Below, piece after piece: positions 259 to 59,405 of a DNA stretch of 63,208 nucleotides. Made by a program: the position numbers and the translations under genes. This DNA comes from a virus (taxonomy: Duplodnaviria; Caudoviricetes). The notes beneath the pieces are model-generated. The model was not told the origin of the DNA. It was given only the letters and a program-made list of their open reading frames with translations, and searched no databases. The DNA is taken from positions 1-63,208 of IMG/VR virus record IMGVR_UViG_3300017700_000880, one strand, 5' to 3'. Positions within the stretch are counted from its first letter, which is position 1. Each line of letters opens with the position of its first letter.

Positions 259-1923
259 ATGGCAAAAATGGAAGACGCCGTCTGCATTGCGGCGGTCAAC
301 GCTTACATCGAATATGGCAGTCAACGACTCGCCGCCGACGCGCTCGGGATAGCGCAGTCCAGTTTGAACGTACAACTCAAAGAGGCCAAGGTGCGCGGGC
401 TGTACCGCGAGCCGAGCGGCGCGGCGGAGGTGTTCGAATCCATCGACTACACCTTGCCAGCGAAGGGCAAGGTCAAACGGTACTTCCTGACCTGTGCGCA
501 GGACCACACGAAACTCAACCGGCCGGCGTGGCTGAACATGCAGGCGCTTGCCGACCACTACCGCGACCAGAAGGATTCGGACGGCGTCGAAATTCTGGTC
601 AGCACGTTCAACTATAACAAGGACGCGGTCGGCCAGAGCAAGTCGGCCAAGGGCCGCGACGAGCAGGCGGAATTGGCGGCCAACTTCCCGCGCGAGGTGG
701 TGCCGTTCATCTGCAACGACCGCATCAACCTCACAAAGAATCTCACGTTCGTCGGCGAGGTGCAAATCAGCCCCACGGCGCGCCGGCCGCTCACCGGCTT
801 CGAGAACTACACGTACCGGCGCTCCACCATCATCCCGCACACGACCATCGCGTTGGCCAGTGTGCCGGGTATGCACGACGAAGGCGTGAAGCTCCTGTAC
901 ACGACCGGCACGATGACGCAGCGCAATTACATCAAGCGCCGGGTCGGCTTCCAAGCCGAGCACTATCACGCTTACGGCTTCCTCCTTGTCGAGGTGGACT
1001 CCGATGGTCATTGGTGGTGCCGCCAAGTCCAGCACGGCGCGGACGGCGCAATGCACGACCTGAACATCCGCGTGAAGGCCGGCGACGTTCAGGTGCAAAC
1101 ATCCCTGCCCCTCGGGCGGAACCATAAAAGTTTTGTGGCCGACATCGCGTGGGGCGACACGCACGCCTCGCAGGTCGACCCCGTGGTCGCCGATATCCAG
1201 TGGGGCAAGCGGCCGGACTCGATGCTGGAATTCCTTCACCCGGCATCACAGCACGTCCACGACTTGCTCGACTTCTCCCCGCAGTCGCACCACACGCGGC
1301 GCGACCCGCATCTCGTTTACCGGCACTTCGTGAAAACCCGAGGGAGCGTTACGACCGAATTGCTCACCACGGCGAAGGTCGCCAACGAAATCTATCGCGA
1401 CTGGTGCGATACCGTGGTCGTCAATTCGAACCACGACCGGCACCCCGAGCGCTGGCTCAAGGAGGCCGACTGGCGTGACGACCACGAGAACGCCATCCTC
1501 ATCCTCGACCTGAACAGCGCAATCCTCAAAGCGATTCAGGCCGGCGACGACAACTTCTATTTGCCGGAAATGATGCTGAAGCTCAGCGGCGCGAATCCGA
1601 AGATTCGTTTCCTGCGCGAAGACGAATCGGACATCATCCTCGGCAACATCGACGGCGGCATCGAGGCCGGCTTGCACGGCGACCGTGGTGCCAACGGTGC
1701 CAAGGGCACCGTCAGCGGCATCGCGCGGTCGGGCCGCAAGTACAACATCGCCGACAAACATGCGGCGGCCATCATGGACCTCACCTATTGCGCCGGTACG
1801 AGCGGCCGGCTGAAAATGGGCTTCAACCACGGCCTCACCACATGGACGCACGCCGATATCGTCACATACAGGAACGGCACGCGCGCCATCGTCTCCGTGT
1901 GGAAGGGCAAATACAAGGCTTAA
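259..1923 (+). CDS. T5 A1-like protein: N-terminal HTH plus metallophosphoesterase/nuclease domain
   Basis: HTH SQRLAADALGIAQSSL; motifs WGDTH, HDLLD, SNHD, LHGDRGANGAKG, TWTHADIVTYRNG. Confidence 0.7.
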   Translation: MAKMEDAVCIAAVNAYIEYGSQRLAADALGIAQSSLNVQLKEAKVRGLYREPSGAAEVFESIDYTLPAKGKVKRYFLTCAQDHTKLNRPAWLNMQALADHYRDQKDSDGVEILVSTFNYNKDAVGQSKSAKGRDEQAELAANFPREVVPFICNDRINLTKNLTFVGEVQISPTARRPLTGFENYTYRRSTIIPHTTIALASVPGMHDEGVKLLYTTGTMTQRNYIKRRVGFQAEHYHAYGFLLVEVDSDGHWWCRQVQHGADGAMHDLNIRVKAGDVQVQTSLPLGRNHKSFVADIAWGDTHASQVDPVVADIQWGKRPDSMLEFLHPASQHVHDLLDFSPQSHHTRRDPHLVYRHFVKTRGSVTTELLTTAKVANEIYRDWCDTVVVNSNHDRHPERWLKEADWRDDHENAILILDLNSAILKAIQAGDDNFYLPEMMLKLSGANPKIRFLREDESDIILGNIDGGIEAGLHGDRGANGAKGTVSGIARSGRKYNIADKHAAAIMDLTYCAGTSGRLKMGFNHGLTTWTHADIVTYRNGTRAIVSVWKGKYKA

Positions 1924-1980
1924 CCAAGGCAAAATAAACCCTTGCAATCCCCGCCGCCGTGGTCAACCATGGCGGCGGGA
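1920..1980 (+). promoter_or_regulatory. Putative promoter: CtrA half-site TTAACCA, -35 TTGCAA (1942), inverted repeat over the -10 region
   Basis: Same geometry as the elements at 25292 and 60848. Confidence 0.6.
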
Positions 1981-2005
1981 CGTAACAGCAAAACAGGATA
2001 CAGCC

Positions 2006-2509
2006 ATGCACGGCATCGACCCTCTCCGCGCCCGCGTCTTGGAGATGCGCGCGAAGTCCGCCCCGAAGATTGCCAGCATCCTCGCCAAAAGAGAAGCCGA
2101 CCGCACCGAAGCCGACAAGGCAAAGGCCGCCGCCATCAAAGCGGTGCCGACATACGAGGAGCGCGTGCGCGAATTCTTCGACCTTATCGACACAAGCGCC
2201 GGCCCTGATGAATGCCACCCGTGGAAGGGGGCTCGTAAATTCAACCATCCCGCCGGCCACATCGCGCGATTCGAACAAGCGATTTTCAAAAGCACGCTGT
2301 TCAACACCGCACAGGCAACGCGCATCCTGTGCCTCCTGACCTACGGCCGCGAAGTGCCGGCCGGCAAGGACGTGACGCCGCTGTGCGAGGACCACTTGTG
2401 CTGCAACGTGCGGCACTTCGTTATCACCCCGGAGGGTTGCCCTAGCTTGGGGCTCAAGCTGAACAAGGGTCAGCCGGCCGAGGAATTCTTCTGCGAGGCT
2501 AAAGCCTGA
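2006..2509 (+). CDS. HNH/His-Cys-like endonuclease homolog, possibly inactive
   Basis: DECHPWKG ... PLCEDHLCCNVRH. Confidence 0.55.
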   Translation: MHGIDPLRARVLEMRAKSAPKIASILAKREADRTEADKAKAAAIKAVPTYEERVREFFDLIDTSAGPDECHPWKGARKFNHPAGHIARFEQAIFKSTLFNTAQATRILCLLTYGREVPAGKDVTPLCEDHLCCNVRHFVITPEGCPSLGLKLNKGQPAEEFFCEAKA

Positions 2510-4134
2510 TGGACTTCGTTCCAAAGACAAAACAGTTCGACCATCAACACGCATTCCTCGAAGAGCATTACGACGCCGAGGCGTTTGCGATGTGGTGGGA
2601 GCAGGGCACCGGCAAGTCGAAGGGCCTCATCGACAATTCGGCGATGCTGTATTGCGACGGGGCCATCGGCGGCCAGTTCGTGCTCGCGCCGAACGGCTTG
2701 CACCGTAATTTCGTGACCAAGGAATTGCCTAAGCATCTCCCCGACGCCATCGCGGAGAAGGCCAAGGCGCTGTTCTGGCGCACCGACAAGTCGGGGACCA
2801 AGTGGCATCAGAACGAGGCGCGCGAGTTGCTGGCGCACAAAGGATTCACGACGCTGGCCATGAGCTACGATGGCATCATGACCGAAGACGGCCGCAAGCT
2901 GGCCAAGGAATACCTGCAGGGCCGGCGGTGCATGTACGGCATGGACGAGTCCGGCCGCATCGCAAACCCTGAAGCCGACCGCACCATCCGCGTCCTCGGG
3001 TCCGCGCCTTTCGCCCCGTTCCGCCGTGGCATGACCGGCACGCCTATCGCTGGCCGGCCGTGGGACGTGTACACGCAAATCAAATTCCTCGACGCCAACT
3101 TCTGGAAACCTTATGGGCTCGATTCACCCGAGGCGATGAAGACCGCATTCGGTGTATGGGACCGGGTCGGCAAGCGCGTCACGGCACAGCAAGCCAAGCG
3201 CGGCAAGGGGCTGGAGAAGCACTACGACCGGGTCGGAATGCCGGAAGAGTTGCGGACCAAGTACCGCGAGGACGGCGATGGGACGGCGTTCATGCTGTTG
3301 CCGGTCATAAAGAAAAATGATTACGGCCGGCCGCAATACAAAAACCTCGAACGGCTCCGTGAAATTGTTTCCAAGATTCGAAGCCGCGTTCTCAAAAAGG
3401 ACGTGTTCGACTTGCCGCCGAAGATGTACACGCCGGTCGAGTACGAGATGGCCCCGGCACAGCGCCGCGCCTATGACTCGCTGAAGAAACTCGGATACGC
3501 AATCCACGAGGAGTCGGGCGGGCTGATGACGTCGCCGATGGCGATGACCACCATACTGCGCCTCCAGCAAATCGCGTGCGGGTACCTTGTGCAAGACTTG
3601 GACCCCAATGACACGAGCGAGGAGCCGAAGGTGCACGCCTTCGAGCCGAATCCGCGCATCGATATCATGCTGGAAATCACCGAGGGCCTCGACCACCCGG
3701 CGCTCATATGGGCACGCTTCCGCGCTGACATCGACCAAATCATGAAGGGGCTGGCAAAGCAAGGCAAGCGCGCCGCGCGCTATGATGGCACCATCAGCGA
3801 CGACGAGTGCGCGGAGAACGAGGACCGCTTCCACCGTGGCGAGGTTCAGTTCCTTGTGTTGAATCCCGCCAAGGGCTCCGAGGGCCTTACACTGAACGAA
3901 GCCAAGACCGTCATCTATTATTCGAACAGCTTCAAACTCATCGACCGACTGCAATCTGAGGACCGCAACCACCGCTATGGCCAATACAACGCCGTTAACT
4001 ACATCGACTTAATCGCACGCGGCACCGTTGACGAACAAATAGTCGAATCGCTACAAGCCAAGTATGACGTCGCCAGCGTCGTGACCGGGGACGGGTTGCG
4101 GTCTTGGCTTGCACCGAGCGACGGTTTCCTGTAA
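2509..4134 (+). CDS. SNF2-family (SF2) helicase
   Basis: EQGTGKS, DES, TGTP, SEGLTL, QSEDRNHRYGQ. Confidence 0.92.
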   Translation: MDFVPKTKQFDHQHAFLEEHYDAEAFAMWWEQGTGKSKGLIDNSAMLYCDGAIGGQFVLAPNGLHRNFVTKELPKHLPDAIAEKAKALFWRTDKSGTKWHQNEARELLAHKGFTTLAMSYDGIMTEDGRKLAKEYLQGRRCMYGMDESGRIANPEADRTIRVLGSAPFAPFRRGMTGTPIAGRPWDVYTQIKFLDANFWKPYGLDSPEAMKTAFGVWDRVGKRVTAQQAKRGKGLEKHYDRVGMPEELRTKYREDGDGTAFMLLPVIKKNDYGRPQYKNLERLREIVSKIRSRVLKKDVFDLPPKMYTPVEYEMAPAQRRAYDSLKKLGYAIHEESGGLMTSPMAMTTILRLQQIACGYLVQDLDPNDTSEEPKVHAFEPNPRIDIMLEITEGLDHPALIWARFRADIDQIMKGLAKQGKRAARYDGTISDDECAENEDRFHRGEVQFLVLNPAKGSEGLTLNEAKTVIYYSNSFKLIDRLQSEDRNHRYGQYNAVNYIDLIARGTVDEQIVESLQAKYDVASVVTGDGLRSWLAPSDGFL

Positions 4135-4162
4135 ACACCGCACACCCTCGGGAGGGGTTAAA

Positions 4163-4861
4163 ATGACAAACGATACCGACGACACCTTGCACGTTGGCCA
4201 AGGCGCTGCGCCAGTGGCCACCCCGCTCGCCGCCATCCTTGGCACGGCCAGCGCCGACGAGAACTACGGCGGCGACTCAGCCGATACGCCCATCACCGCC
4301 GACAGCTTGACCGCGTTGCGCGAGTTGGCGCAGCAACAGTTGAACGAGATGCGCGCCGTGGCCGATGCCGCGCAAGCCCTCAAGGATGCGAACAAGCGCC
4401 TCGCCAATATCGCCGAGGACAAACTGCCGAAGTTGATGAAGGAATTCGGCATGCCCCAATTCAATTTCATCGACGGCCACGATGGCAGCGTGCTCACCAT
4501 CAAGCGCGTCGAGAAACTGTACGTCTCGATGCCGAAGAACGACGCCGAGCACGCGGTCGAGCGCGAGGAAATCTTCGCTTGGCTCCGCACAAAAGACCTC
4601 GGCGGGTCCATCAAAGAGACCATGGAAATCAACCTCGGGCTCCACGTTGACGGCATCACCGAAAAACTGCAAGCGGCGCTCAACGCCACCGGCCTCAACC
4701 TCGACGTCGCCATCGATAAGAAAATCGAACCGGCAACGCTGACCGCCGCCGTCACCCGCCTCAAGGAAGCGGGCGAAAACATTCACGCCAGCATCAAGGT
4801 CACGCCGGCCGACTTCGCCGATGTGGTCGTCAAGACCAAGGCCAAGAGCAAGCGTAAGTAA
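4163..4861 (+). CDS. Hypothetical protein in the replication module
   Basis: RBS GGAGG; long ORF between the helicase and SSB. Confidence 0.75.
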   Translation: MTNDTDDTLHVGQGAAPVATPLAAILGTASADENYGGDSADTPITADSLTALRELAQQQLNEMRAVADAAQALKDANKRLANIAEDKLPKLMKEFGMPQFNFIDGHDGSVLTIKRVEKLYVSMPKNDAEHAVEREEIFAWLRTKDLGGSIKETMEINLGLHVDGITEKLQAALNATGLNLDVAIDKKIEPATLTAAVTRLKEAGENIHASIKVTPADFADVVVKTKAKSKRK

Positions 4862-4950
4862 TTCCCCTTAAGACGGGGAGTCCCTGCCCGAGGGGAGATT
4901 CGGGCCGTACCGCCGCGCGCGTTAGCCGGCTCAACACGGAGGCCCATCAC

Positions 4951-6268: not shown

Positions 6269-6441
6269 TGGGATGGGGTCATGGGTGGTTCGCCGGCTGG
6301 AGAACGGCCGGCAAGGATGAGCGCAAGGCGCGCATCCGCTCCAGCTTCCCGCGAATCCCCAAGCCGGCGCGCACCGTTCGACACGCGCCGGCACGGCAAC
6401 CGACATTTGATTATCGTCTGCGCAAGTGGAGGCACGGCTGA
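6268..6441 (+). CDS. 57-aa basic hypothetical protein (below the ORF-track cutoff)
   Basis: TGATG overlaps at both ends. Confidence 0.5.
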   Translation: MGWGHGWFAGWRTAGKDERKARIRSSFPRIPKPARTVRHAPARQPTFDYRLRKWRHG

Positions 6442-7226
6442 TGCGGTACATGGGCTCCAAGGGGCGATTCGCCAAAGCGTTGGTCCCTGAGATTATGCGC
6501 TGGCACCATGAGACGATGCCATACGTGGAGCCGTTCGTCGGCGGCGGGAATATGATTTGCAAGATTCCCGCCGTGCCGGCCGGCCGCACCGGATACGATG
6601 CGAATAAATACGTGGTCGCCCTCCTTGAGGCCGTGCGCGACGGATACCATCCGCCTGAGCACATCTCCGAGGAAATTTACAACGACGTCCGCGACAACCC
6701 CGACTCCTTTAGCCCCGCGCTGGTCGGCTTCGTCGGCACCGCGTGCACCTTCGGGTCCAAGTGGTTCGGCGGATACGCACGCACCTCGCGCACCGGAGAG
6801 CGCGTGCGGGACTATTGCGCTGAAGGCCGCGCCGCGCTATTGAAGCAAGCGCCGTCCCTGTACGGCATTCGCTTCAAGCATTCCGATTACAAGGACATCC
6901 AATTTGTTCTCCCGTCGCTCATCTATTGCGACCCGCCGTATGCCGACACCGATGCGCGGTACCAAAAGGGATTCGACTCCGCCGCGTTCTGGCGATGGGC
7001 TGATGACCTTGTCGAGGCCGGGCATCGCGTGTACGTCTCCGAATACGAAGCGCCTGACCACTGGCGCTGCATCTGGAACAAGCCGTTGAAAGTGGTCATG
7101 AACGGCACAAACTCAAAGCACGCAACCGAGCGGCTTTACACCCGAGGGAAATCATTCGATGAAGTACATGGGCAGCAAGGCGAAGCACGCCAACGACATT
7201 CTCAAGATTGTACTTGCGGCGCGTAA
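6441..7226 (+). CDS. Dam/D12-class N6-adenine DNA methyltransferase 1
   Basis: YMGSK, YVEPFVGGG, YCDPPY, VSEY. Confidence 0.9.
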   Translation: MRYMGSKGRFAKALVPEIMRWHHETMPYVEPFVGGGNMICKIPAVPAGRTGYDANKYVVALLEAVRDGYHPPEHISEEIYNDVRDNPDSFSPALVGFVGTACTFGSKWFGGYARTSRTGERVRDYCAEGRAALLKQAPSLYGIRFKHSDYKDIQFVLPSLIYCDPPYADTDARYQKGFDSAAFWRWADDLVEAGHRVYVSEYEAPDHWRCIWNKPLKVVMNGTNSKHATERLYTRGKSFDEVHGQQGEARQRHSQDCTCGA

Positions 7227-8130
7227 GCCGGGGCAATACTACGTCGAGCCGTTCGTTGGCGGTGCCAACGTGATGAGCCATGTGCCGACCGTCGAGGCCG
7301 AGCACGGCTACGCCACCGGCCCGCGCCTCGGGTGCGATATCAACCGGTACATGGTCGCGTTGCACACGGCGCTCGCCGCCGGCTGGCAACCGCCGCGCGA
7401 CCTGAAGCCGCAAGAGTACCGGCTCATCAAGGCGCGGCCGGATGACTTCCCGCCTGAACTCGTGGCCTTTGTGGCGACCGGCGTCACGTTCGGCTCCATG
7501 TGGTTCGGCGAATACGTCAAGGATGGCCCCGGCGAGAACCGGTGCCGGCAGTCGGCCGACTCATGCTTGCGTGATGCGCCCGGCCTCACTGGCGCGGAGT
7601 TTCGTCATTGGGAATTCAACAGCGACGACATGAGCGCGTTCCTGAAAGCGCACAAGCCGGCGTTGGTCTATTGCGACCCGCCGTATGTCAATACGACGAG
7701 TTATGCCGGCGCGAAGAAGACGATCAAGGTCGGCGATTCGCTCGGCGCGAATACGTGGAAGGCGAGCAAGTTCTGGAAATGGGCCGACGCGCTCGTCGAC
7801 GAAGGGCACAGCGTTTTCGTCAGCGAGTACACCGGCCCGTCGACCGATGTGTACGCCAGCCTCCCGCAATCGGACGCGGAGAAGGCCACGCGCGCCGCCG
7901 CCGCCGCGTTCCAAGCATCGACCGAGTACAGCGCCGCCGGTATGGAGGAGCACTTCGCGCGCATCAAATCGCACGAGGCCGAGCGCCGCGCCGCCGCCGA
8001 GGCCATGTGCGCGCGATGGGAGGTGGTGTGGTCGAAGGAAGTGACCGCCGACTTCAGCGCCAGCCGCGAGGCCGGCGTCAAGACCGGCAAGGTCGAAGTC
8101 GAAAAGCTGTTTCACCGAAAGGCCGCTTAA
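7159..8130 (+). CDS. Dam/D12-class N6-adenine DNA methyltransferase 2
   Basis: YMGSK, YVEPFVGGA, YCDPPY, VSEY; Ala-rich insertion. Confidence 0.9.
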   Translation: MKYMGSKAKHANDILKIVLAARKPGQYYVEPFVGGANVMSHVPTVEAEHGYATGPRLGCDINRYMVALHTALAAGWQPPRDLKPQEYRLIKARPDDFPPELVAFVATGVTFGSMWFGEYVKDGPGENRCRQSADSCLRDAPGLTGAEFRHWEFNSDDMSAFLKAHKPALVYCDPPYVNTTSYAGAKKTIKVGDSLGANTWKASKFWKWADALVDEGHSVFVSEYTGPSTDVYASLPQSDAEKATRAAAAAFQASTEYSAAGMEEHFARIKSHEAERRAAAEAMCARWEVVWSKEVTADFSASREAGVKTGKVEVEKLFHRKAA

Positions 8131-8131
8131 C

Positions 8132-9385: not shown

Positions 9386-9558
9386 TTCCATCATTGGTCA
9401 CGGCATTCTTCGACCCACGCATCTTTAACTATGTGATGATGGGGATGTGCCTTTGTGCGGCGGCGCGCTGGACATTGGCGGGGCAATGGTGGCAGGTTCT
9501 TTATTGGATTGCCGCCGGCCTCATCACCGTCGCCGTCACGAATGGGTTCACGAAATGA
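9382..9558 (+). CDS. Small membrane protein
   Basis: ATGA overlaps; two hydrophobic segments. Confidence 0.6.
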   Translation: MIPSLVTAFFDPRIFNYVMMGMCLCAAARWTLAGQWWQVLYWIAAGLITVAVTNGFTK

Positions 9559-17608: not shown

Positions 17609-17900
17609 CCGGCGGCGATGCGGTAGGGTGCGGGTCGGATATGGCCTGTTCGACATCGCTTAACTCCATGAAATGATTACAGAATGAGCCGCGATGCGGT
17701 AGGGTGCCGATACCCGAGGGAAGAGCCGTTAGGGGAAGGCACACGCGCAGTCGATTCCGTTGTCGGTTGTTATTGTTCGACATCCTTCCACATCCTTCAA
17801 CATCTTCTATAAAAGAATAAATAGAACAGTGAGTTAGGCGATGCCGAACGATGCGGTAAGATTCTGAACTGTGCAATTCACCCCTCTCGGGTGGTTGACA
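17609..17900. other. Non-coding repeat and AT-rich region; candidate origin or pac site
   Basis: gcgatgcggtagggtgc at 17615 and 17691, partial at 17849; tandem acatccttc; AT-rich 17805-17830. Confidence 0.5.
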
Positions 17901-44529: not shown

Positions 44530-44533
44530 ATGA

Positions 44534-51041: not shown

Positions 51042-51043
51042 GC

Positions 51044-51072
51044 TTGCCGCGTATCCTGCGCTGTGCTAGAAC
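51044..51072 (+). promoter_or_regulatory. Sigma70-like promoter of the lysis cassette
   Basis: TTGCCG-N17-TAGAAC with TG extension. Confidence 0.55.
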
Positions 51073-51104
51073 GGGGCACACGCTCACCCGAGGGAGATTG
51101 AATC

Positions 51105-51956: not shown

Positions 51957-51966
51957 GGAGGATACC

Positions 51967-52491
51967 ATGTACCAGCTTTTGCTCCATGCCTTGCTGTGGT
52001 CGCTCATCGTTGGCACGACCGCCGGCTTCTATTGGTTCTGGATTCGACCCATCCTGCGCATCAACCCCTCGTTCAAGGAGTTTTACGAGGAGTCGGATAC
52101 GCGCATCGAAGCCTTGCGCCGCAAATTCGCCGGCCTCAAGCAAAAGCTGACCACGGCGTTCTTCTTCCTGATCGGCATCATCGTCAGCGGTTACGACTTC
52201 TTCCTCACGATGGCACAGGCGTCCGGCTACGGCCTGAACGACTTGAGCACGCTCACCGACAAGGTGCCGCCGGCCGCGTGGCCGCTCATCGGCATGGCGG
52301 TGCTCGCGCTGATTCAGTATCTGCGCAACTTGAACGACGCGCGGACCAATGCTGAAATCGTGGTCGCCGCCGCAACTGGCGAAGTGAAGGAGACCACCAT
52401 CGAAGCGGTGGCCGCCAAGTCGCCGGAAGTGCTGGCCGAGCAGGTCGGCATCATCACGCCGGTCAGCGCCGTCACCGGGGAGCGCGTGTAA
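51967..52491 (+). CDS. Membrane protein with three hydrophobic segments (holin/antiholin candidate)
   Basis: RBS AAGGAGG; lies in the lysis cassette. Confidence 0.6.
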   Translation: MYQLLLHALLWSLIVGTTAGFYWFWIRPILRINPSFKEFYEESDTRIEALRRKFAGLKQKLTTAFFFLIGIIVSGYDFFLTMAQASGYGLNDLSTLTDKVPPAAWPLIGMAVLALIQYLRNLNDARTNAEIVVAAATGEVKETTIEAVAAKSPEVLAEQVGIITPVSAVTGERV

Positions 52492-52922
52492 TGTGGAAAG
52501 TCCTCGGCGGATTCCTTACGGGCGGGCCTATCGGAGCGGTCGCCGGCTTTGTCGGCGACCTGCTCGCGCCCGTGAACGGCATCATCAAGTCGCTGGCCGA
52601 TGCGAAGGTGCAACTCAAAAACGCCGAGAACGATGAGCAGCGCATCTTCCAGCAAGAGCGCATCAATGCGCTGAACGCCAAGATGAACCTCCAGCTAGGC
52701 GAGGCCCCGTTCACGCGGCTGAACGCCATGACGCGCACGGCCGCCGCCGCCGGCCCCATCATTGTCCTGCTCAAGATTTTCGTTTGGGACAAGGCCCTCG
52801 GTCAGTGGACCGGCGGTTACACCGACCCGCTTGGCGAACAGCTTTGGCAGGTCATCATGGTCGTCCTCGGCTTCTATTTCGTGTCCGATATGGCGGCGCG
52901 CGTGTTCGGGAAAACCAAATGA
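52491..52922 (+). CDS. Holin (GTA 3TM-holin-like)
   Basis: TM segments; VWDK....TDPL...W...VLGFYF. Confidence 0.65.
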   Translation: MWKVLGGFLTGGPIGAVAGFVGDLLAPVNGIIKSLADAKVQLKNAENDEQRIFQQERINALNAKMNLQLGEAPFTRLNAMTRTAAAAGPIIVLLKIFVWDKALGQWTGGYTDPLGEQLWQVIMVVLGFYFVSDMAARVFGKTK

Positions 52923-53470
52923 CCGACTCCAACTATCGCTTGTCGGCGACTCGCTATTACGCCGACTTCGTCACCGTGCCGCTGGCCATCCTTGCCGCGT
53001 GCATCTTCGGCAACCAACTGGCGTCCGAGGCATTCGTGTCGTCCGTGATGGCCGGCGTGCTGACTTGGTCGCTGGCCGAATACTGGATTCACCGTTCCCT
53101 CTTCCACGGCGTGGAGCCGTTCAAGGCCGAGCACCGAGTGCACCACATCCGGCCGCCCGACTACATCGGCGCGTCCCCGTGGCTTACGGCGGCCGTGATA
53201 GCGGTCGGCGGCCCGGTCGCTTTCGCCTCCCTCGGGTCAACGGTCGGCGCGGGATTCTTCGCCGGTATCCTGACGGGCTATTTCGCTTACATCTTTGTGC
53301 ACGACCGATTCCATCATGCCCGAGGGCTTGGCCCTGTGCTGGCATGGCTCCATGCACGGCACGAGTACCATCACCGCCGCGAGCGGGTGAATTTCGGCGT
53401 GACAAGCCCGTTGTGGGACTTGGCCTTCGGCACCTATGCCCGGCCGCACGCGCTGGAAAGGCGTCGTTAA
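52919..53470 (+). CDS. Fatty-acid hydroxylase / sterol desaturase family protein
   Basis: EYWIHRSLFH, HRVHH, HDRFHH, HEYHH, NFGVTSPLWDLAFGT; TM helices. Confidence 0.92.
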   Translation: MTDSNYRLSATRYYADFVTVPLAILAACIFGNQLASEAFVSSVMAGVLTWSLAEYWIHRSLFHGVEPFKAEHRVHHIRPPDYIGASPWLTAAVIAVGGPVAFASLGSTVGAGFFAGILTGYFAYIFVHDRFHHARGLGPVLAWLHARHEYHHRRERVNFGVTSPLWDLAFGTYARPHALERRR

Positions 53471-53559
53471 CCATACGATCAGCCCGGCCACCCCGTTAAC
53501 GATTTGTTAAGACCTTGCCGGTACGTTGGCCCCATCGTAACCAGCCAAGGACGACCGCC
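53467..53559 (+). promoter_or_regulatory. CtrA-box promoter cassette 1
   Basis: TTAACCAT at 53467; TTAA-CGATTTG-TTAA at 53496-53510. Confidence 0.8.
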
Positions 53560-54036
53560 ATGTTGAGATTCCAGCTTACCCGCAGCCCCGCCGGCCACAT
53601 CACTCACGCCGTTGCCATTGACGAGACGGTGCCGTGGACGCGGGACCAGAACTTCGAAAACCGCAACGACTGGAAAACCTTCGAGGAAGCCGTGCGCGTT
53701 GCCATGGCGCTGAACGCGGCCGAGGCCGCCAAGGTGCCGGCCGAGCGCACCGTGTACATCCCGACCGATGCCGGCGCGCACGTTTCGCCGCGCTATGATG
53801 TGGAAGCCCTCCCCAAGGTCGGCGACGACGTGAGCTACGGCTTCAACGGCGACTCGTACCCGTGCGGCAAAATCACCTCCATCAGCAAAGGCCCCGACTA
53901 CCGCCGCATCGTTGCTAAGAACGACGCCGGCACCGAGTGCGTGTTCTGGCGCTTGCGGAAGACCGGTAGCTGGAAATATCAACAGACTTGGTCGCTGATG
54001 AAGGGCGTGCACAACGAGCGCAACCCCTCGTTTTAA
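53560..54036 (+). CDS. Hypothetical, probably early, protein
   Basis: Follows cassette 1; RBS AAGGA. Confidence 0.75.
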   Translation: MLRFQLTRSPAGHITHAVAIDETVPWTRDQNFENRNDWKTFEEAVRVAMALNAAEAAKVPAERTVYIPTDAGAHVSPRYDVEALPKVGDDVSYGFNGDSYPCGKITSISKGPDYRRIVAKNDAGTECVFWRLRKTGSWKYQQTWSLMKGVHNERNPSF

Positions 54037-54149
54037 CCCCCTGTTAACCATTGAACACAAGGCCCGGCCGGCGCGCCGGGCCTTAACCTTTTGTTAAGAC
54101 CTGCCCTGTACGTTGGCCATATCGAAACCAGCGCCACGGAGAACCGCAA
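54033..54149 (+). promoter_or_regulatory. CtrA-box promoter cassette 2 (two full boxes around a hairpin)
   Basis: TTAA-N7-TTAA at 54033 and 54083; inverted repeat 54059-54084. Confidence 0.85.
54078..54131 (+). repeat. 54-bp direct repeat copy 1
   Basis: Identical to 54846-54899. Confidence 0.9.
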
Positions 54150-54407
54150 ATGACCATCACCATCCTGAAACTCAGCCCCGGCCAGAAGATTGCCCGCCCC
54201 TTCAGCCGCGCCAGCACCATCGGCGAACTTGCCGAAATCATCGTAACCGGTGAGCCCTCCAAGGGCATGACCTACAAGGCCCGCGCCGCCTTCGGTGCAC
54301 AGGCCAACGACAAGCCGGAAGCGCACATCGTGGTTGCCGCCATCGACACCGAGGAACCGGTGTTCCAGTGGAAGGGCGACCGGTACTACGCCTTCACCGA
54401 AAACTAA
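54150..54407 (+). CDS. Hypothetical protein
   Basis: RBS GGAGA. Confidence 0.7.
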   Translation: MTITILKLSPGQKIARPFSRASTIGELAEIIVTGEPSKGMTYKARAAFGAQANDKPEAHIVVAAIDTEEPVFQWKGDRYYAFTEN

Positions 54408-54436
54408 ACCCCGCAACCAACGCCACGGAGAATCAC

Positions 54437-54814
54437 ATGACGAAGTTCACCCGCCCCGCCAAAGGCGATGCCGCCCGCCAAATAGTTTCCAGCGGCAAAC
54501 TCGGCGACATTGTTTGGGATGTGGTCGAGACCGGCCTCGGTGCCGGCGGCCAGTTCGCCGAGATTCGCGAGCACGGCACCGAATACAAGACTCAGTTTTG
54601 GCCGCTCGATATGCTGGCCAAGGACGCCGAGGTACAGGCCGCGAAGTACGTGCTCATCGAACGCCAGCCGGACGGCTGGACCGATGTGTACGGCCCCTTC
54701 ACCTCCCGCGCCGCCGCCAAGGCGCACGGCCAGTTCCGCTCGGACATGAACAAGGAAGACGGCCCCGGCTTCAAATACACCGTGTCGCAATTGACGGCCG
54801 TGGAAGGCCAGTAA
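54437..54814 (+). CDS. Hypothetical protein
   Basis: RBS GGAGA. Confidence 0.7.
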   Translation: MTKFTRPAKGDAARQIVSSGKLGDIVWDVVETGLGAGGQFAEIREHGTEYKTQFWPLDMLAKDAEVQAAKYVLIERQPDGWTDVYGPFTSRAAAKAHGQFRSDMNKEDGPGFKYTVSQLTAVEGQ

Positions 54815-54915
54815 CCGAAAATTAACCCTCGGGTCAACAGCCCGAGGGCCTTAACCTTTTGTTAAGACCTGCCCTGTACGTTGGCCATATCGAAACCAGT
54901 GCCCCGGAGAACGCC
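54811..54915 (+). promoter_or_regulatory. CtrA-box promoter cassette 3
   Basis: GTAA-N7-TTAAC at 54811, hairpin 54826-54848, TTAA-N7-TTAA at 54851. Confidence 0.85.
54846..54899 (+). repeat. 54-bp direct repeat copy 2
   Basis: Identical to 54078-54131. Confidence 0.9.
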
Positions 54916-55053
54916 ATGACCACCCGCCGCCGCATCCTCCTCGCTCAGTTGAACACCATGCTCCGCCTCGCCGGCCAAGCCGAAGTCGTGCGGTTCCATG
55001 GCTCGACTCAGAAGCTCAGCGCCCGCGTGACGCGCATGTGGAAGGCCCTGTAA
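54916..55053 (+). CDS. 45-aa basic hypothetical protein
   Basis: RBS GGAGA after cassette 3. Confidence 0.6.
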   Translation: MTTRRRILLAQLNTMLRLAGQAEVVRFHGSTQKLSARVTRMWKAL

Positions 55054-55054
55054 C

Positions 55055-55339
55055 ATGAACAACGCCATCAACGACGCCAAGCTGAACCGCGCCGGCCTCA
55101 AGTTGGACCGCAAGGCCGAAGAGTGGAAGGAAGTGACCAGCACCGTCCCCGCCGACCGCTTGCCGGCCGACCTTCCGGTGTACGATGCCGACGCCATGGG
55201 CATCCGCTGGCAAGTGATGAACGACTTCAAGCACGAGCCCGGCGCGCAATACTTCATCGTGACGGTCGGTGCCGACCGGTACCTCGTGAACACCGAGGGC
55301 TATAACTTCGCCAAGTACGTTGCCAAGGTGGTGTCATGA
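55055..55339 (+). CDS. Hypothetical protein
   Basis: Tiles the array; YLVNTEGYNFAKY. Confidence 0.7.
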   Translation: MNNAINDAKLNRAGLKLDRKAEEWKEVTSTVPADRLPADLPVYDADAMGIRWQVMNDFKHEPGAQYFIVTVGADRYLVNTEGYNFAKYVAKVVS

Positions 55340-55554
55340 GCACGCGCAAAATCGGCGATAAAGTTTTCGACATGCCGAGCCAAAAGGTTTGCACCATCAT
55401 CGACATCGACACGATGGAAGTGGAAGGCCACGCCGAAACCTACTTCCAAGTCGATGCGCCGGACAACGCCACAGGCGACGGGGCCTTCCCGAACGGCTGG
55501 CGCTGTGAGTTTGAAATTTGCGACCCCGACAAAACTTTGCCGCTTGAATACTAA
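55336..55554 (+). CDS. Hypothetical protein
   Basis: ATGA coupling. Confidence 0.65.
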   Translation: MSTRKIGDKVFDMPSQKVCTIIDIDTMEVEGHAETYFQVDAPDNATGDGAFPNGWRCEFEICDPDKTLPLEY

Positions 55555-55563
55555 CCCCGGAGA

Positions 55564-55914
55564 ATGACAATGCCCATCACTGAACGCAAGCTGACCCTCG
55601 ATATGCCGTTCCACCCTTACAGCGGCGCACCGCATCTCCGCCGCGTTGTTACCGACCGCGACCATGTGCCTTTTAATAAGCGCCGCCATCAGGTTGAATC
55701 ATCCGTTGCGCGCTTCACCGCCACGGCGATGCCGGGCGGCGATTGGGTGACGGTCGAGATGGAAGAAACGACCAAGTCGCACAGCGGCACCGTGCAAACC
55801 CGCACCATCAGCATGAGCATCCCGGCCGCGTTTGCCGACTCGATGGGCGACGTGCTCAAGGCGACGAAGATGGCCAGCTACGCCGAGCGCGTTGCCGGCG
55901 AGGTGAAGTCGTGA
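55564..55914 (+). CDS. Hypothetical protein
   Basis: RBS GGAG. Confidence 0.65.
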   Translation: MTMPITERKLTLDMPFHPYSGAPHLRRVVTDRDHVPFNKRRHQVESSVARFTATAMPGGDWVTVEMEETTKSHSGTVQTRTISMSIPAAFADSMGDVLKATKMASYAERVAGEVKS

Positions 55915-56132
55915 GAACGGCCGCCATGTACAAGGCCGGTGCGCGCATTGCCCGCACCGGTACAGGCGGACTCCCGCAAGTGCGGCGGTGGTGCATGGAC
56001 TCGCGCCTCCCCGCCCGACTCGTTGATACTGTGGTATCCGGCTGGCGCGCCGAACAGCGCCTCATCAAGCGGTACGGCCTTGACGCCCGTCTCGGCACCC
56101 GCCTTGGAGCAACTGAGGATAGACGCCGATGA
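55911..56132 (+). CDS. Hypothetical protein
   Basis: GTGA coupling. Confidence 0.5.
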   Translation: MRTAAMYKAGARIARTGTGGLPQVRRWCMDSRLPARLVDTVVSGWRAEQRLIKRYGLDARLGTRLGATEDRRR

Positions 56133-56410
56133 AACCCCTTGCCCTCGCCCTACTGACCGCCGCCCTCCTCGGGCAACCGGCCAGCGCCTTGACCATTACG
56201 CGCACTTGCACCGGGACGACCTGCACCCTGCAGGTTTTCCAGCTTGACGCCGGCCCGCGCATCATCCGCCGGGGTCAGCCCGAGGAGGGCGCGGCCGAGC
56301 GCGAGCGGAAGTGGCTGGAGTTTTGCAAGCCAACGTTCCGCACCGACGAACTTGGCGTCGAGCATTACGTGTACGCCGAGAAGGGTTGCCAGTACGGCCG
56401 GAGTCAGTAG
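56129..56410 (+). CDS. Secreted hypothetical protein
   Basis: Signal peptide ending PASA; 4 Cys. Confidence 0.65.
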   Translation: MKPLALALLTAALLGQPASALTITRTCTGTTCTLQVFQLDAGPRIIRRGQPEEGAAERERKWLEFCKPTFRTDELGVEHYVYAEKGCQYGRSQ

Positions 56411-56760
56411 CCGGCCAGCACCTTCCGCTCCATAAGGTTGAGTTGGGCGCTGATGGTCTTGGCCAGCCGGCGCTCAACGGCCGTCTCAACTGGCGTCATC
56501 GGTTCGCCGCGCTGGCGTAGCGTGACCATGCAGGCAAGCTGGCGCATCGTTATCTGCACCGCGCCGCTGGACAAAGCCTTGCGCCGTTTGGTTATGCAGA
56601 TATCGAAATGCTCTTTGAAGGTGCCGGGGAATTGTACGTGCCGAGTGGCCACGCCGATGGTCCTCATCATCGCCATCAACTCGGATGACGAGTCGGCAAT
56701 GACGTGGCACATCTTCATCCCGCGATAGGGTGCGGCCATATCGTCAACGTACACGGCCAC
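56404..56760 (-). CDS. DUF4031 domain protein
   Basis: VYVDD...MCHVIAD...EL......IG......EHFDI....RKAL..GA. Confidence 0.85.
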   Translation of the reverse strand: MAVYVDDMAAPYRGMKMCHVIADSSSELMAMMRTIGVATRHVQFPGTFKEHFDICITKRRKALSSGAVQITMRQLACMVTLRQRGEPMTPVETAVERRLAKTISAQLNLMERKVLAGY

Positions 56761-57148
56761 GCCTCACCTCCAGATAAGAGAAGACCTTGAGCGGCTCCTC
56801 GCCGGCCGGGTCGAACATCTTGCGGCCGTCCCACGCGCACCAATGCCAGCCGCTCCGCTTCAGGTGGAACAGTTCCTTGGTCTTGAGGAGGCACTTGCCC
56901 TCGCGATAACGCGGCGGCCACGGCTGGAGCCGGTGGTGACTGCACTCGAAGCCAAGCTGCGCCAGCGCGGCGATGACGTGCTTCGTCGTGGTGCCCCGTG
57001 GTCGCCCGCGCGGGAATTGAAACGCCTCCAGCGCCCGCTTATAGCTGACGTTCGTCAGCATGGCCACGACCGCCACGCCGCAGTCTTTGTTCGTGCGTTG
57101 CGCGACCAGCTTCACGAGCGCGGCTCCAGATGGCCGAGCCGTCGCCAC
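56744..57148 (-). CDS. Peptidase C39-like (papain fold) protein
   Basis: QRTNKDCGVAVVAML..HWCAWDG..FDP. Confidence 0.75.
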   Translation of the reverse strand: MATARPSGAALVKLVAQRTNKDCGVAVVAMLTNVSYKRALEAFQFPRGRPRGTTTKHVIAALAQLGFECSHHRLQPWPPRYREGKCLLKTKELFHLKRSGWHWCAWDGRKMFDPAGEEPLKVFSYLEVRRGRVR

Positions 57149-57915
57149 ATGTCATCCTTTTCGGCGACCGCTTTATTGTGCGCCAGCACGAGCGACTTCA
57201 CTTGGTCCTCAAGGTCGAGGATGCGCTCGTTCTTCAGAAGGTCGGCGTGCGCGTTGACGATATCGCGGCGCAACCGGATACAGCCGGACTCGTGCAACTC
57301 GCCGTGGATGATGCGGTGCTGGTCGATTTGGTTCCGCGAGCCGAAACCTTCAGGGTCAAAGCGGCCGGTCCATCCGTGGTATTTGCCGTCCTCGTCACGC
57401 TTATCGCATGACAGGTACCGGCGCATCTGGTCCTCGGAGTGCGGCCCGCCTTCGAGCAACGCCTCGACGGTCCTGCGCGCCATCTCTTGCACCCACGTCA
57501 CAAGGTTCGGCGCTAGGTCGTCTTTCATACGGTACATCAGGTCGTCCTCGACCATGCACGTAATCTCCTCAATCTTTTTGCCCATCGCCTTGACGGTGTC
57601 ATCGCTGACGCCAGAGGTGAGCACGGCGCGAAGCTTGGCCGATAGCTCCGCGTGGTCGGTGCCGTCAAATTCGACAACCGGCGGCGAGTGGCCGGGCTCC
57701 AGCCCGCACGCATCGCGCAACTCGGACCAAAGGCGCGCGGCGGTGCCGCCGTACAGCGTCTTCACCGGCACCCATCGCGTCTCGTAATACACGGCCGCGA
57801 CGGCGCGCATCAGGCGCGCCACCTCAATCTCCTCGGCCGACTTGGTCGACCACGGGACGCCAACTTCGACGCCGCTCTTCTCGTTGATGCCTTCGGTCAT
57901 TGTGCTCGCCCCCAT
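57112..57915 (-). CDS. Hypothetical protein
   Basis: Long ORF in the minus-strand array; start uncertain. Confidence 0.65.
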   Translation of the reverse strand: MGASTMTEGINEKSGVEVGVPWSTKSAEEIEVARLMRAVAAVYYETRWVPVKTLYGGTAARLWSELRDACGLEPGHSPPVVEFDGTDHAELSAKLRAVLTSGVSDDTVKAMGKKIEEITCMVEDDLMYRMKDDLAPNLVTWVQEMARRTVEALLEGGPHSEDQMRRYLSCDKRDEDGKYHGWTGRFDPEGFGSRNQIDQHRIIHGELHESGCIRLRRDIVNAHADLLKNERILDLEDQVKSLVLAHNKAVAEKDDMWRRLGHLEPRS

Positions 57916-58260
57916 AATGCGCCGAGTTCATTGTCCATGAACACGTCGTCGTCCAACGATTGGACCAATTCCTTGCCGGCCTGAAGCATGTACTCCAGCG
58001 GCGACGGTGCGTGCTGGCGCAAGCGTTCGATGGCGGCGGCGTCTTCCTTCGTAGCGGTGCGGATAATCATTTGCCTCGTGCCCTTCGTTGCATTGACGCC
58101 TGCAGTTGCTTCACGAGTTGGTCTTGCACCGCTGGCGTCTCATGCGGAGGCAAGATGGCGATGGCTTGGTTGCCCTGTACAATGCCAGTGGCGACCGGCG
58201 GCCGGGAGTCGGCGTAAGCGCCGCGCGCGGCGCGATTGCCATACGGGTCATCGTTGAACA

Positions 58261-58608
58261 TCAGCGTGCCAGCGATTGCCGAGCCATCTCGGACTCGGAG
58301 GGAAGCTTGCGGCGGTAACGCGGCGGCGGCCGTTCAGGCTTGAGGCCGAGCGCCTCGCGGCCCTTGGCGGTCAGCGTGAACGTCACGACGATGGCCGGCT
58401 CATCGCGCGGGCCGTCATCGATAGCGCGGCGCGCGAGGTATCCCTCCAGCGCCAGCGCGGACAATTCCTTGCCCTTGATGCCACGGTGAGTCGCGCTGAC
58501 CAGTTTCGGCGTCTTATGGCCGGCGTGAGGAATCTCGTATCCGAAGCGGGCGGGCTTATCGGCCAGCCGCTTAAGCAACTGGAGCGAGTCGGGTTTCAGC
58601 GTCATCAT
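58261..58608 (-). CDS. Hypothetical, winged-helix-like
   Basis: L..LALEGYL....FTLTAKGREAL. Confidence 0.55.
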   Translation of the reverse strand: MMTLKPDSLQLLKRLADKPARFGYEIPHAGHKTPKLVSATHRGIKGKELSALALEGYLARRAIDDGPRDEPAIVVTFTLTAKGREALGLKPERPPPRYRRKLPSESEMARQSLAR

Positions 58609-58886
58609 TGGCGACCTTCGTTGGAGTGCAAATAAAGAATCCAGATTGACCGAAACTTGGCGGCGCGAAGTGCGGTCCCGGCCGGCCGCAGTTCGGACAC
58701 GGCCCTCCCTCGGGTATCACACCGTTAAACCGGCGATGGTACTGCGCATCGGCGACCGTCATAACGCCCTGCCTTTTGCGGCGCGCCCTTGCGCGCACGG
58801 ATGAACTTGTCATCACCGACTCCGGTCGATGATGATAGCGATGGCGAGGGCCGCCATCAGGATGACCAAACCCTCGCCACCGGATA

Positions 58887-59405
58887 TCATTTGCCGGCCT
58901 TCGCCTTGCGGCGCAACTTGGCCATCACAGCCTTCTTCGACTTGGCCAGCGGCGCGGCCTTTACCCGAGGGGCAGAGTCCGGCCAGTTGCGCGAGCCGTA
59001 CATCGTGGCCAGCGCCAGCGTCTTGCCAGCTTGGCGCGCAAACATCCCGCGCACGCGGTCGTCCATGACCGCCGGCCAGATAAGCATCCGCTCACCGGTA
59101 CGGGCACCGCCAACGTCGCCATGTACGCCGACCTCGACCTTTGCCTTGCGGTCGTCCTTGGCCGCCGGCTTGCGCGAGGCGATGGTCGGTGAGACCGGCT
59201 CCACGATGCCGACAATCTTGACGATGGCGAAGGTGCCGGTCTTCTGAAGCTGTGCCAGCTTGACAATGGTGGCGCGCGCCTCGTCTTCGGCACCGGCCTG
59301 CTTGCGGTGAAGCTTGCGGTCGGTATCCTTGCCGTCCGCTTTGATGCAGATGGCGGCGTACTGTGCCATCATGCGCGGCTCGGTCTTCGGTTTACTCTTC
59401 TTCAT
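58887..59405 (-). CDS. Lys/Ala-rich basic protein
   Basis: RBS GGAG; basic composition. Confidence 0.6.
   Translation of the reverse strand: MKKSKPKTEPRMMAQYAAICIKADGKDTDRKLHRKQAGAEDEARATIVKLAQLQKTGTFAIVKIVGIVEPVSPTIASRKPAAKDDRKAKVEVGVHGDVGGARTGERMLIWPAVMDDRVRGMFARQAGKTLALATMYGSRNWPDSAPRVKAAPLAKSKKAVMAKLRRKAKAGK

Follow-up and report, generated by a model that had tools for sequence, protein, structure and literature searches.

An over-represented octamer forms divergent inverted pairs across the genome of a freshwater tailed phage

We analysed the IMG/VR record IMGVR_UViG_3300017700_000880, a complete viral record of 63,208 bp (Duplodnaviria; Caudoviricetes; hereafter the window) with a terminal overlap of 123 bp and 62% G+C, and the short asymmetric word CCCGAGGG that is dispersed throughout it. 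A freshwater metagenome is the sole public run containing the phage (assembled contigs, depth 468). On our own gene map, built with a codon-likelihood model trained on long open reading frames (ORFs), the window holds 89 predicted ORFs and is 92% coding, with 8.0% of the genome non-coding; genes run rightward from 1 to ~56.4 kb, followed by a leftward block at 56.4–62.8 kb. Proteins were annotated for 72 of the 89 ORFs (Pfam or PHROG scans of 70 and tblastn of 2, with 17 small ORFs outside this set), and all family results below refer to these 72. The scans indicate a siphovirus-type layout, with SNF2-type and RecD/Dda-like helicases, an AEP-type primase/helicase and PolA, a dNMP phosphatase and MazG-like proteins of nucleotide metabolism, and TerS, TerL, portal, scaffold, major capsid, tail and endolysin genes. 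In the search for a DNA binder, the families that turned up were limited, in addition to the helicases, to two homing-type His-Me/HNH nucleases (2006–2509 and 9555–10043), two methyltransferases and a DUF3489 protein (59944–60663). We found no integrase or lysogeny module among these ORFs, and no match to the Erf, RecT, Red, UvsX or Gam families; the SSB family likewise had no match, leaving unconfirmed the label “ssb” used in a preliminary description of this DNA. No tRNA and no Rfam family was found in the window.

The word CCCGAGGG occurs 24 times in the genome, 12 times per strand, which corresponds to ~380 copies per Mb or one per 2.6 kb, compared with 2.96 ± 1.54 copies in 100 dinucleotide shuffles (maximum 8). 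Markov models of orders 0 to 6 predict between 1.6 (order 2) and 13.7 copies (order 6), the last value being high because CCCGAGG itself is present in 50 copies. By order-3 z-score, CCCGAGGG is the highest-ranking 8-mer of the genome (24 vs 2.2 expected), and the highest-ranking 9-mer and 10-mer are ACCCGAGGG (13 vs 0.49) and ACCCGAGGGA (7 vs 0.10), respectively. The word is strict: its single-base variants are present in 0–2 copies only, and among the 16 CCCNNGGG words compared, the GA/TC centre alone is enriched, the remaining 14 having 0–2 copies. The shorter core CCCGAG occurs at 80 sites. All 22 copies listed in the preliminary description are placed exactly, but two, 1109(−) and 44565(−), had been missed. 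The base on the 5′ side is A in 13 copies, as had been reported, and G in 9 rather than 7, with C in one (31680) and T in one (4145); RCCCGAGGG is thus observed 22 times against 1.65 expected. Copies occur in every reading frame, 12 of them in the direction of transcription and 12 against it, and we saw neither clustering at the genome ends nor strand bias.

CCCGAGGG is selected at the nucleotide level and does not result from chance, codon usage or composition. Synonymous-codon shuffling within genes yields 2.06 ± 1.29 genic copies (maximum 6 in 1000 shuffles), compared with the 15 observed. Because restriction-type words are avoided to an extreme degree in this genome, the codon shuffle was repeated with new copies of 20 such words forbidden; the result, 2.41 ± 1.53 (maximum 9 in 551 samples), led us to reject funnelling by restriction avoidance as the cause. 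A rare codon (GGG, CGA, AGG or CCT) is present at 13 of the 15 genic copies; GGG accounts for 8.6% of Gly codons, CGA and AGG for 7.3% and 2.5% of Arg codons, and CCT for 9% of Pro codons. Conversely, 9 of the 24 copies are located in the 8.0% of the genome that is non-coding (binomial p = 5.8e-5). The comparison with Markov models, the codon-preserving shuffle and the intergenic enrichment test that the preliminary description had proposed have thereby all been run, and these results, together with the other shuffles and the word ranking, agree with its claim of a signal beyond chance. Furthermore, the site is asymmetric beyond the word itself. Positions −4 to −1 of the 5′ flank of the oriented copies read W-W-T-R (p = 0.026, 0.01, 0.0013 and 2e-5, respectively), whereas no position is significant in the 3′ flank of the 24 oriented copies, and the AT excess is limited to the last five bases of the 5′ flank (0.58 vs a genome mean of 0.38).

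The main structural feature, absent from the preliminary description, is the arrangement of the copies as divergent inverted pairs. The octamers alternate in strand, and all seven neighbouring pairs less than 800 nt apart consist of a minus-strand copy followed by a plus-strand copy, denoted (−,+), so that the top-strand order is CCCTCGGG...CCCGAGGG (strand-shuffle p = 1e-4). Distances between neighbours are 15–2139 nt for (−,+) and 1507–8425 nt for (+,−) (Mann–Whitney p = 2.9e-4). The same order prevails for the shorter cores, with 13 (−,+), 2 (+,−), 1 (+,+) and 0 (−,−) pairs of CCCGAGG within 300 nt (13 of 16, p < 1e-5), and 23 (−,+), 7 (+,−), 7 (+,+) and 0 (−,−) pairs of CCCGAG within 400 nt (23 of 37). 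A plus site follows a minus site at 0–400 nt in 26 cases vs 10 expected, and the reverse order is depleted at 200–600 nt (1 vs 10 expected). A (−,+) partner is found within 400 nt of 17 of the 24 octamers and a (+,−) partner near only 3, and 19 of the 23 catalogued pairs are 46–382 nt apart. The arrangement is its own reverse complement and therefore reads 5′-CTCGGG...CCCGAG-3′ on either strand, with the AT-rich flanks of the two copies pointing inward in each pair.

We did not find this orientation bias in null models or in the other DNA compared. In 300 protein-preserving shuffles, the 6-mer formed 3.9 (−,+) pairs on average (maximum 9), compared with 23 observed, and all four pair types were similar in frequency or rarer; given this lack of orientation bias, the pairing cannot be attributed to a Leu-Gly...Pro-Glu pattern in the proteins. 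Across 356 background viral loci (3.25 Mb), we counted 523 (−,−), 435 (+,−), 460 (+,+) and 366 (−,+) pairs, that is, 366 of 1784 or 20.5% in the (−,+) order, omitting pairs with octamers in both arms because such pairs had selected the loci. Against this background, 23 of 37 in the phage gives a binomial p = 4e-8, and 17 of 31 remain when the same exclusion is applied to the phage (p = 2.7e-5). Only 2 of 23 close pairs are (−,+) in the relative G005, which has 66.7% GC and 79 CCCGAG sites, and the first 100 of the 272 sites in the motif-rich bacterium G048 form 3 (−,+), 3 (+,−), 1 (+,+) and 1 (−,−) pairs. The word ranks first for oriented inverted pairing among 541 six-mers, 778 seven-mers and 724 eight-mers, and a search of four relatives for private oriented pairs returned localised repeat clusters only.

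Several lines of evidence indicate that the pairing is a property of the DNA duplex. On the transcribed strand, enrichment of partners is seen for the exact inverted word (24 vs 9.5) and does not extend to G-U wobble partners (9 vs 6.9 and 14 vs 23.6), which points to selection on the oriented word in duplex DNA and not on base-pairing potential. Local RNA folds show no excess of motif pairing (0.67 vs 0.71 in GC-matched controls), and complementarity of the arms beyond the 8-mer, assessed for 8-mers only, is not significant (p = 0.21); a 6-mer test of arm extension (p = 0.003) was set aside as confounded by the 8-mers themselves. We conclude that the selected feature is the word in a given orientation on duplex DNA, with the pairs 54826/54841, 45621/45641, 50992/51087 and 56167/56279 as exceptions. 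The segments enclosed by the pairs share no sequence similarity with each other and therefore are not elements resembling miniature inverted-repeat transposable elements. No strand-changing joint indicative of inversion of the bracketed segments was found in the contigs of the run over 43500–63208, contigs being a form of data that drops rare variants.

The phage has no close relative in the collections searched. The nearest cultured phages infect Bordetella, Pseudomonas, Stenotrophomonas and Rhodobacter, with ~45–50% identity in PolA and TerL (tblastn); megablast against phages gave no match, and tblastn of PolA and TerL remained below 60% identity. Among viral contigs, the nearest TerL is ~50% identical; genome contigs yielded four loci at 42–50% and no prophage relative, and metagenome contigs yielded two portal loci at 42–49% and no relative of the tail protein. 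Five relatives with ~48% TerL identity carry 0, 0, 0, 1 and 4 copies of CCCGAGGG. The densest of 401 sampled Pseudomonadota genomes contains ~160 copies per Mb, compared with 380 in the phage, and this is unchanged for the 400 genomes left when the unpublished G391 is excluded. In the genomes with the highest motif-to-control ratios, the word has the TG flanks typical of CTG-CCC-GAG-GGC coding (flank test, five genomes), and no strand skew of the word was seen in G128 and G048. A host origin of the word is thus without support, and the true host probably lies outside the 401 sampled genomes. In the literature searched, we found CCCGAGGG only in a paper on absent words. Separately, distant relatives possess private over-represented words of their own, namely, ATACGGTATA (14 copies) and GTATATAC (26) in G002, ACTACAGG (22) in G003 and AGGTTAAG (11) in G005 (these three relatives being loci L044–L051 and L056–L059), which mostly form localised clusters.

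In the left part of the genome, pair 1 (1109–1344; CCCTCGGG at 1109–1116 and CCCGAGGG at 1337–1344, octamers in both arms) is located in the ORF 259–1923, and pair 2 (2994–3133; CCTCGGG and CCCGAGG, both 7-mers) within the SNF2-type helicase gene. The minus-strand octamer at 4145–4152 is single, with no partner within 400 nt and the next octamer, 4887(+), 742 nt away. Pair 3 (4633–4894) combines CCTCGGG at 4633 with an intergenic octamer at 4887–4894, 58 nt upstream of the ATG at 4951. Single plus-strand octamers follow at 7141–7148, with an SD-like GAGGG (SD, Shine–Dalgarno sequence), and at 11226–11233, in the dNMP-phosphatase gene, where the codons are CCG-AGG-GAG with AGG rare. Pair 4 (14273–14325; CTCGGG and CCCGAGG) is within the DNA polymerase gene. 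Pair 5 (17416–17720), with two octamers, covers the primase gene end (17608) as well as the first iterons in an origin- or pac-like region; pair 6 (17886–18130; both 6-mers) spans the TerS start (17988); and pairs 7 (19015–19213; both 6-mers) and 8 (20019–20381; both 7-mers) are within TerL. The plus-strand octamer at 20652–20659 is single and lies 66 nt upstream of the portal gene start, in a weakly supported small ORF.

Further along, pair 9 (27929–28051) consists of two 6-mers, and pair 10 (29077–29467), which encloses the scaffold start at 29233, of an octamer in the loop of a GC-rich terminator-like hairpin and CCCGAGG at 29461. Three single octamers, at 30199–30206 (−), upstream of the major capsid gene, at 31680–31687 (+), where it encodes Pro-Glu-Gly in common codons and is possibly background, and at 34257–34264 (−), in the codons GCC-CTC-GGG, are interspersed with pair 11 (32814–32836; CCTCGGG and CCCGAG, starts 16 nt apart). 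Pair 12 (36455–36667; both 6-mers) spans the gene junction at 36482. Pair 13 (39913–40025; CTCGGG and CCCGAGG) has as its right arm the sequence CCCGAGGAGGG, the SD of the ORF at 40035. The stem of pair 14 (42138–42240; both 7-mers) can extend to 10 bp, whereas pair 15 (44565–44861; octamer and CCCGAGG) is found in a tail assembly gene. Pair 16 (45621–45647; octamer and CCCGAGG, 12-nt loop) is predicted to pair locally and has no T run, and pair 17 (47677–47767; CCTCGGG and octamer) is in a tail protein gene.

At the right end, pair 18 (50992–51094) has two octamers as arms, which extend to 14 bp with G-T pairs. Pair 19 (53229–53326), also with two octamers, lies within the ORF 52919–53470. 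Pair 20 (54826–54848) forms a hairpin (stem of 8 bp, loop of 7 nt) that has T-rich sequence on either side, is terminator-like in both directions, and directly adjoins a 67-nt promoter-like repeat with TTAA-N7-TTAA. Pair 21 (56167–56285) comprises two 7-mers within a perfect 14-nt inverted repeat (CGCCCTCCTCGGGC and GCCCGAGGAGGGCG) near the convergence of the transcription directions. Pair 22 (58707–58971; two octamers) spans an intergenic region, and pair 23 (61486–61526; CCTCGGG and CCCGAG) a gene junction, both in the leftward operon.

A subset of the copies is located at expression signals. Three end exactly 10 nt before an ATG, namely, 4145 (ATG at 4163), 7141 (ATG at 7159, second D12-class methyltransferase) and 51087 (endolysin, ATG at 51105), and the 7-mer at 40019 is itself an SD sequence. 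Phage genes use GGAG-type SD sequences, and an SD role fits 7141, 51087 and 40019, with 4145 adjoining the SD GGGAGGGG; the other ~20 copies are away from starts, and 12 are antisense. The preliminary description had placed copies in or just before gene starts, which applies to these three; the scaffold and capsid copies that it also named are 149 and 159 nt upstream. The copies 4145 and 51087 begin 8 and 15 nt after −10-like hexamers, in promoter-like sequences TTGCAC-N17-TAAACA (4109–4137) and TTGCCG-N17-TAGAAC (51044–51072, flanked by the arms of pair 18), and 30199 is in the spacer of TTGACG-N18-TAAACA (30188–30217). The pattern TTGNNN-N17-TA(A/G)A(A/C)(A/C) has 8 matches in the genome vs 3.1 in shuffles, and the promoter association of 4145, 30199 and 51087 is suggestive only. 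As for terminators, a loop shorter than ~30 nt, a GC-rich stem and a T run coincide at 54826/54841 alone, and this stem is also present in at least 119 further viral contigs, in many cases between A and T runs. This hairpin had been described as lying between two CtrA boxes; a full box is present at 54851, whereas upstream there is only a TTAA half-site.

The 67-nt promoter-like repeat adjoining this hairpin is present in three copies (53491–53557, 54078–54144 and 54846–54912) with 64–97% identity, each carrying a TTAA-N7-TTAA box and preceding a small gene; copies two and three follow a GC-rich hairpin. There are five such boxes in the window (53496, 54033, 54083, 54851 and 60845) vs 0.1 expected. 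If TTAA-N7-TTAA is the CtrA box consensus, as we take it to be, the boxes suggest CtrA-type control and an alphaproteobacterial host. Upstream of the ORFs at 259 and 4163, the promoter-like sequences at 197–226 and 4109–4137 have in common the block CGGTTTCCTG and, after it, (A)TAAA; the two may belong to one type of early or middle promoter.

Several known systems of dispersed phage words are comparable. Stoperators are 13 bp long and aligned with the direction of transcription, and phage P1 carries dispersed asymmetric C1 operators. The stoperators of cluster A mycobacteriophages are described as dispersed asymmetric operators bound by one phage protein (PMC9283540, PMC6550527). Like stoperators and the P1 operators, CCCGAGGG is a short asymmetric word with two to three dozen copies, distributed genome-wide at and off promoters and private to a lineage. 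However, the core here is only 8–10 bp, 12 copies are sense and 12 antisense, divergent pairs form within 400 nt, and the genome has no repressor gene, integrase or lysogeny module among the ORFs examined. To our knowledge, divergent pairing has not been described for stoperators. The nick motifs of T5-, phiKMV- and tf-like phages are words of 7–9 nt with 13–14 copies, all on one strand, the tf-type motif being common to 61 phages (PMC3517423, PMC11780129). They resemble CCCGAGGG in length, in enrichment of roughly ten-fold or more with about a dozen copies, in genic and intergenic placement and in lineage specificity, but differ from it in that the copies here are split 12:12 with paired opposite-strand sites, and distant relatives lack the word.

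In the phages LLS and MD8, the recombination hotspot Chi is the top octamer, and 20 of its 23 copies in LLS and all 32 in MD8 have the same orientation (PMC12315714). These Chi-rich phages, which have no recognisable recombination module, are also similar in having one copy per 1–3 kb, but their copies are biased in orientation and cluster near one genome end; here there is neither bias nor clustering, and local divergent pairs are present. The start-associated sequence (SAS) and its extended form (ESAS) in cluster K mycobacteriophages reportedly are conserved GC-rich words with an SD-like core, at a fixed short distance before several starts. Likewise, three copies here precede an ATG by 10 nt and an SD is formed by a fourth site, a 7-mer variant, yet only 3–4 of the 24 copies are start-associated, the others being intragenic or at promoters or terminators, with half on the non-coding strand. 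Finally, intrinsic terminators with a CCCTCGGG/CCCGAGGG stem are exemplified by 54826/54841 but account for one, perhaps two pairs, the others having their arms 80–380 nt apart, without T runs and in ORFs. Thus, the word shares its private, strict and dispersed character with Chi, nick motifs and stoperators, lacks their one-strand or transcription-aligned feature, and adds divergent pairing.

We tentatively favour the view that (T)R-CCCGAGGG, with the core CCCGAG, is a polar site on double-stranded DNA, recognised by a protein that is private to the lineage and probably encoded by the phage. This protein would act on the divergent pairs, some of the sites lying at promoters or ribosome-binding sites. 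The working unit would be the tail-to-tail pair 5′-CTCGGG...CCCGAG-3′, with arms 13 to ~400 bp apart and flexible, AT-rich T-R flanks inward. We infer that such a protein would bind both copies, which could then cooperate over the intervening DNA by looping or bridging; protein-mediated loops of about 400-bp scale are known. At sites overlapping promoters, 5′ leaders or ribosome-binding regions (4145, 7141, 30199, 51087 and 40019), binding might modulate expression, whereas intragenic pairs could be auxiliary or roadblock sites, or part of a genome-wide DNA transaction. The data establish the enrichment of the word, the selection on its nucleotides, its asymmetry, and the pairing with its orientation and range; protein binding, looping and their consequences are inferred.

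Several observations weigh against a protein-binding site of this kind. Most of the pairs lie inside genes, an unusual placement for the sites of a gene regulator, and a site of 8 bp is short for an operator, dispersed operators being known at 13–17 bp. Gene starts are enclosed by pairs no more often than expected (3 vs 5.1), and gene ends likewise are not in excess. The promoter association is circular because the pattern was derived from the same three sites. Moreover, a DNA binder was not found, with no HTH, repressor or ParB-type domain among the ORFs scanned, which leaves the DUF3489 protein and many small ORFs without a family as candidates, and PDB sequence searches with three candidate proteins returned nothing useful.

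A more doubtful possibility is a hitherto undescribed, genome-wide system of polar 8–10-bp sites in divergent pairs, in which about two dozen bracketed segments of 13–400 bp are read by a private phage enzyme or bridging protein. Such a system might operate through paired opposite-strand nicking, which would yield long cohesive or recombinogenic ends or divergent replication primers, or through a genome-organising looping protein. If true, tailed phages would have a type of cis-acting architecture not seen before, different from Chi, from nick motifs and from stoperators.

Paired nicking or cleavage at the T-R step by a phage nuclease, such as one of the His-Me/HNH proteins at 2006–2509 and 9555–10043, appears rather unlikely. 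Opposite-strand nicks 13–400 nt apart would produce long cohesive or recombinogenic ends or divergent 3′-OH primers, and the polarity and opposite-strand pairing of the sites are what a nickase would see. The strict polar word with its 5′ T-R step resembles TACT/RTGMC of phage tf and R/GCGCRGG of T5, and its copy number is near that of the nicked phages (13–14 sites); two nuclease genes are present, and the motif is private to the lineage. However, the documented nick motifs are all on one strand (tf 14/14, Rembedalsseter 13/13, phiKMV-like phages and T5), unlike the 12:12 split here, and only 12% of 542 motifs of tf-like phages are outside coding sequences, with no enrichment, compared with 37% here. 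In addition, opposite-strand nicks 13–18 nt apart, as at 54826/54841, 45621/45641 and 32814/32831, would fragment the genome, and both nucleases resemble ordinary free-standing homing enzymes, with no Pfam or PDB match for either.

It is unlikely that the word mimics a Chi-like hotspot of the host AddAB/RecBCD system, present in both orientations to tame the exonuclease from either end and to drive recombination-dependent replication. Under this explanation, divergent pairs would leave overlapping 3′ tails on molecules resected from opposite sides. It would fit a strict word that is the most over-represented octamer, occurs in all reading frames and recurs once per 2.6 kb, and Alphaproteobacteria are without an established Chi, so that a new word is conceivable (PMC8022716). 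However, the Chi-rich phages mentioned above carry Chi almost entirely on one strand, compared with 12:12 here, and a Chi-like role would not lead one to expect divergent pairs at close range, an excess of intergenic copies or copies 10 nt before ATGs. The sampled Pseudomonadota genomes, all at or below ~160 copies per Mb, and the codon-context TG flanks without visible skew in the highest-ratio bacterial genomes also speak against it.

We consider it improbable that the pairs function as RNA elements, with an anti-SD-like 5′ arm and an SD-like 3′ arm (GAGG) in 5′-CUCGGG...CCCGAG-3′, serving as terminators, mRNA-stabilising stems, or devices of start masking or translational coupling. Individual pairs would suit such roles, including the terminator-like hairpin at 54826/54841, whose stem is common between A/T runs in other viral contigs, the locally pairing 45621/45641, and 50992/51087, where a 14-bp stem could mask the endolysin SD with its 5′ arm in the upstream ORF, as could 39913/40019 in a similar manner; the fixed order with the anti-SD-like arm first would be a natural polarity in a phage with GGAG-type SDs. 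Against this stand the wobble partners, local folds and arm extension considered above, none of which is enriched, and the pairs enclose or precede starts no more than expected by chance. Most pairs fall within ORFs that are translated, their loops reach 380 nt, and either stem order would pair equally well, yet one order alone is enriched.

Methylation of the single A of CCCGAG by a phage D12-class methyltransferase or a host BREX- or Type III-like system, providing epigenetic marks or a two-site restriction logic, is very unlikely. Hemimethylating systems have target words with A on one strand only, as here; tandem D12-class methyltransferase genes are present at 6426–8130 with a copy 10 nt before the second, and close head-to-head (+,−) octamer pairs are absent, the shortest spacing being 1507 nt. 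However, restriction targets would be expected to be avoided, as 18 palindromes and CCWGG are in this genome, and not enriched ten-fold, and avoidance of head-to-head pairs leaves the tail-to-tail excess (26 vs 10) unexplained. That the word is a by-product without function, of codon usage, composition or site avoidance, is extremely unlikely: CCCGGG (0 copies) and CTCGAG (1) are avoided and CCCGAG and CTCGGG are their one-transition neighbours, CCCGAGG often encodes Pro-Glu-x in frame 0 and GC-rich bacteria reach ~160 copies per Mb, but codon shuffles with or without forbidden sites give 2.1–2.4 genic copies vs 15, rare codons and the intergenic excess run counter to it, and neither shuffles nor relatives, other viral DNA or the bacterium show the oriented pairing.

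Study of the short dispersed words of phages (Chi, nick motifs, stoperators) has in each case uncovered a particular protein–DNA mechanism, and the purpose of nick motifs is open after decades. What is new here is that a genome retains its top over-represented word, even where this requires rare codons, in divergent pairs over distances of up to 400 bp; should these pairs be read by a protein, they would reveal a new rule by which a phage marks or organises its own DNA.

In addition to CCCGAGGG, other words are over-represented in this genome, including GGATAC (61 copies on both strands vs 17.6, order-3 Markov), AAGCTG (69 vs 23) and CCTGCAGG (8 on both strands vs 0.33), with CTGATC being CTGATCG in 8 of 8 copies. 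The avoided words comprise 18 palindromes with an observed/expected ratio below 0.15 plus CCWGG, as seen for GATC (10 vs 218–311), CCWGG (1 vs 223), CCGCGG (0 vs 72), CGATCG (0 vs 57), GGCGCC (2 vs 65) and ACGCGT (2 vs 40), and in the counts of CCCGGG (0), GGGCCC (0), CACGTG (0) and CTCGAG (1). Other palindromes are enriched, namely, TGTACA (21 vs 5.5), GAATTC (37 vs 14) and GTAC (217 vs 106); avoidance does not extend to GANTC (303 vs 218). Since it combines the avoidance of ~20 restriction-type words with putative CtrA-box promoters, the phage could offer a useful case of phage–host conflict in freshwater Alphaproteobacteria.

The tandem D12-class N6-adenine methyltransferase genes (6426–7226 and 7159–8130) are paralogous, overlap by 68 nt and have DNA segments that are 70–74% identical; the RecD/Dda-like helicase gene and an HNH nuclease gene are located downstream. 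The non-coding region at 17609–17987, between the primase gene and TerS, is iteron-rich, with two copies of GCGATGCGGTAGGGTGC and a shorter third copy (17615, 17691 and 17849) and two copies of TGTTCGACATC (17647 and 17774), and is likely an origin or packaging-recognition region; the copy of the word at 17713 falls within it, in line with the preliminary description. A gene for an SPFH/Band 7 domain protein (22350–22922) is present between the portal and head-morphogenesis genes, and ~12 small unannotated ORFs are inserted at 25.3–28.9 kb between the head-morphogenesis and scaffold genes. Finally, a minor contig in the same run (depth 10 vs 468) joins 54928 to 57020 with 24 other letters between, and contigs of that run have loose ends at 54911, 55248 and 57037; a low-abundance variant or relative thus appears to replace ~2.1 kb of small genes (54929–57019).

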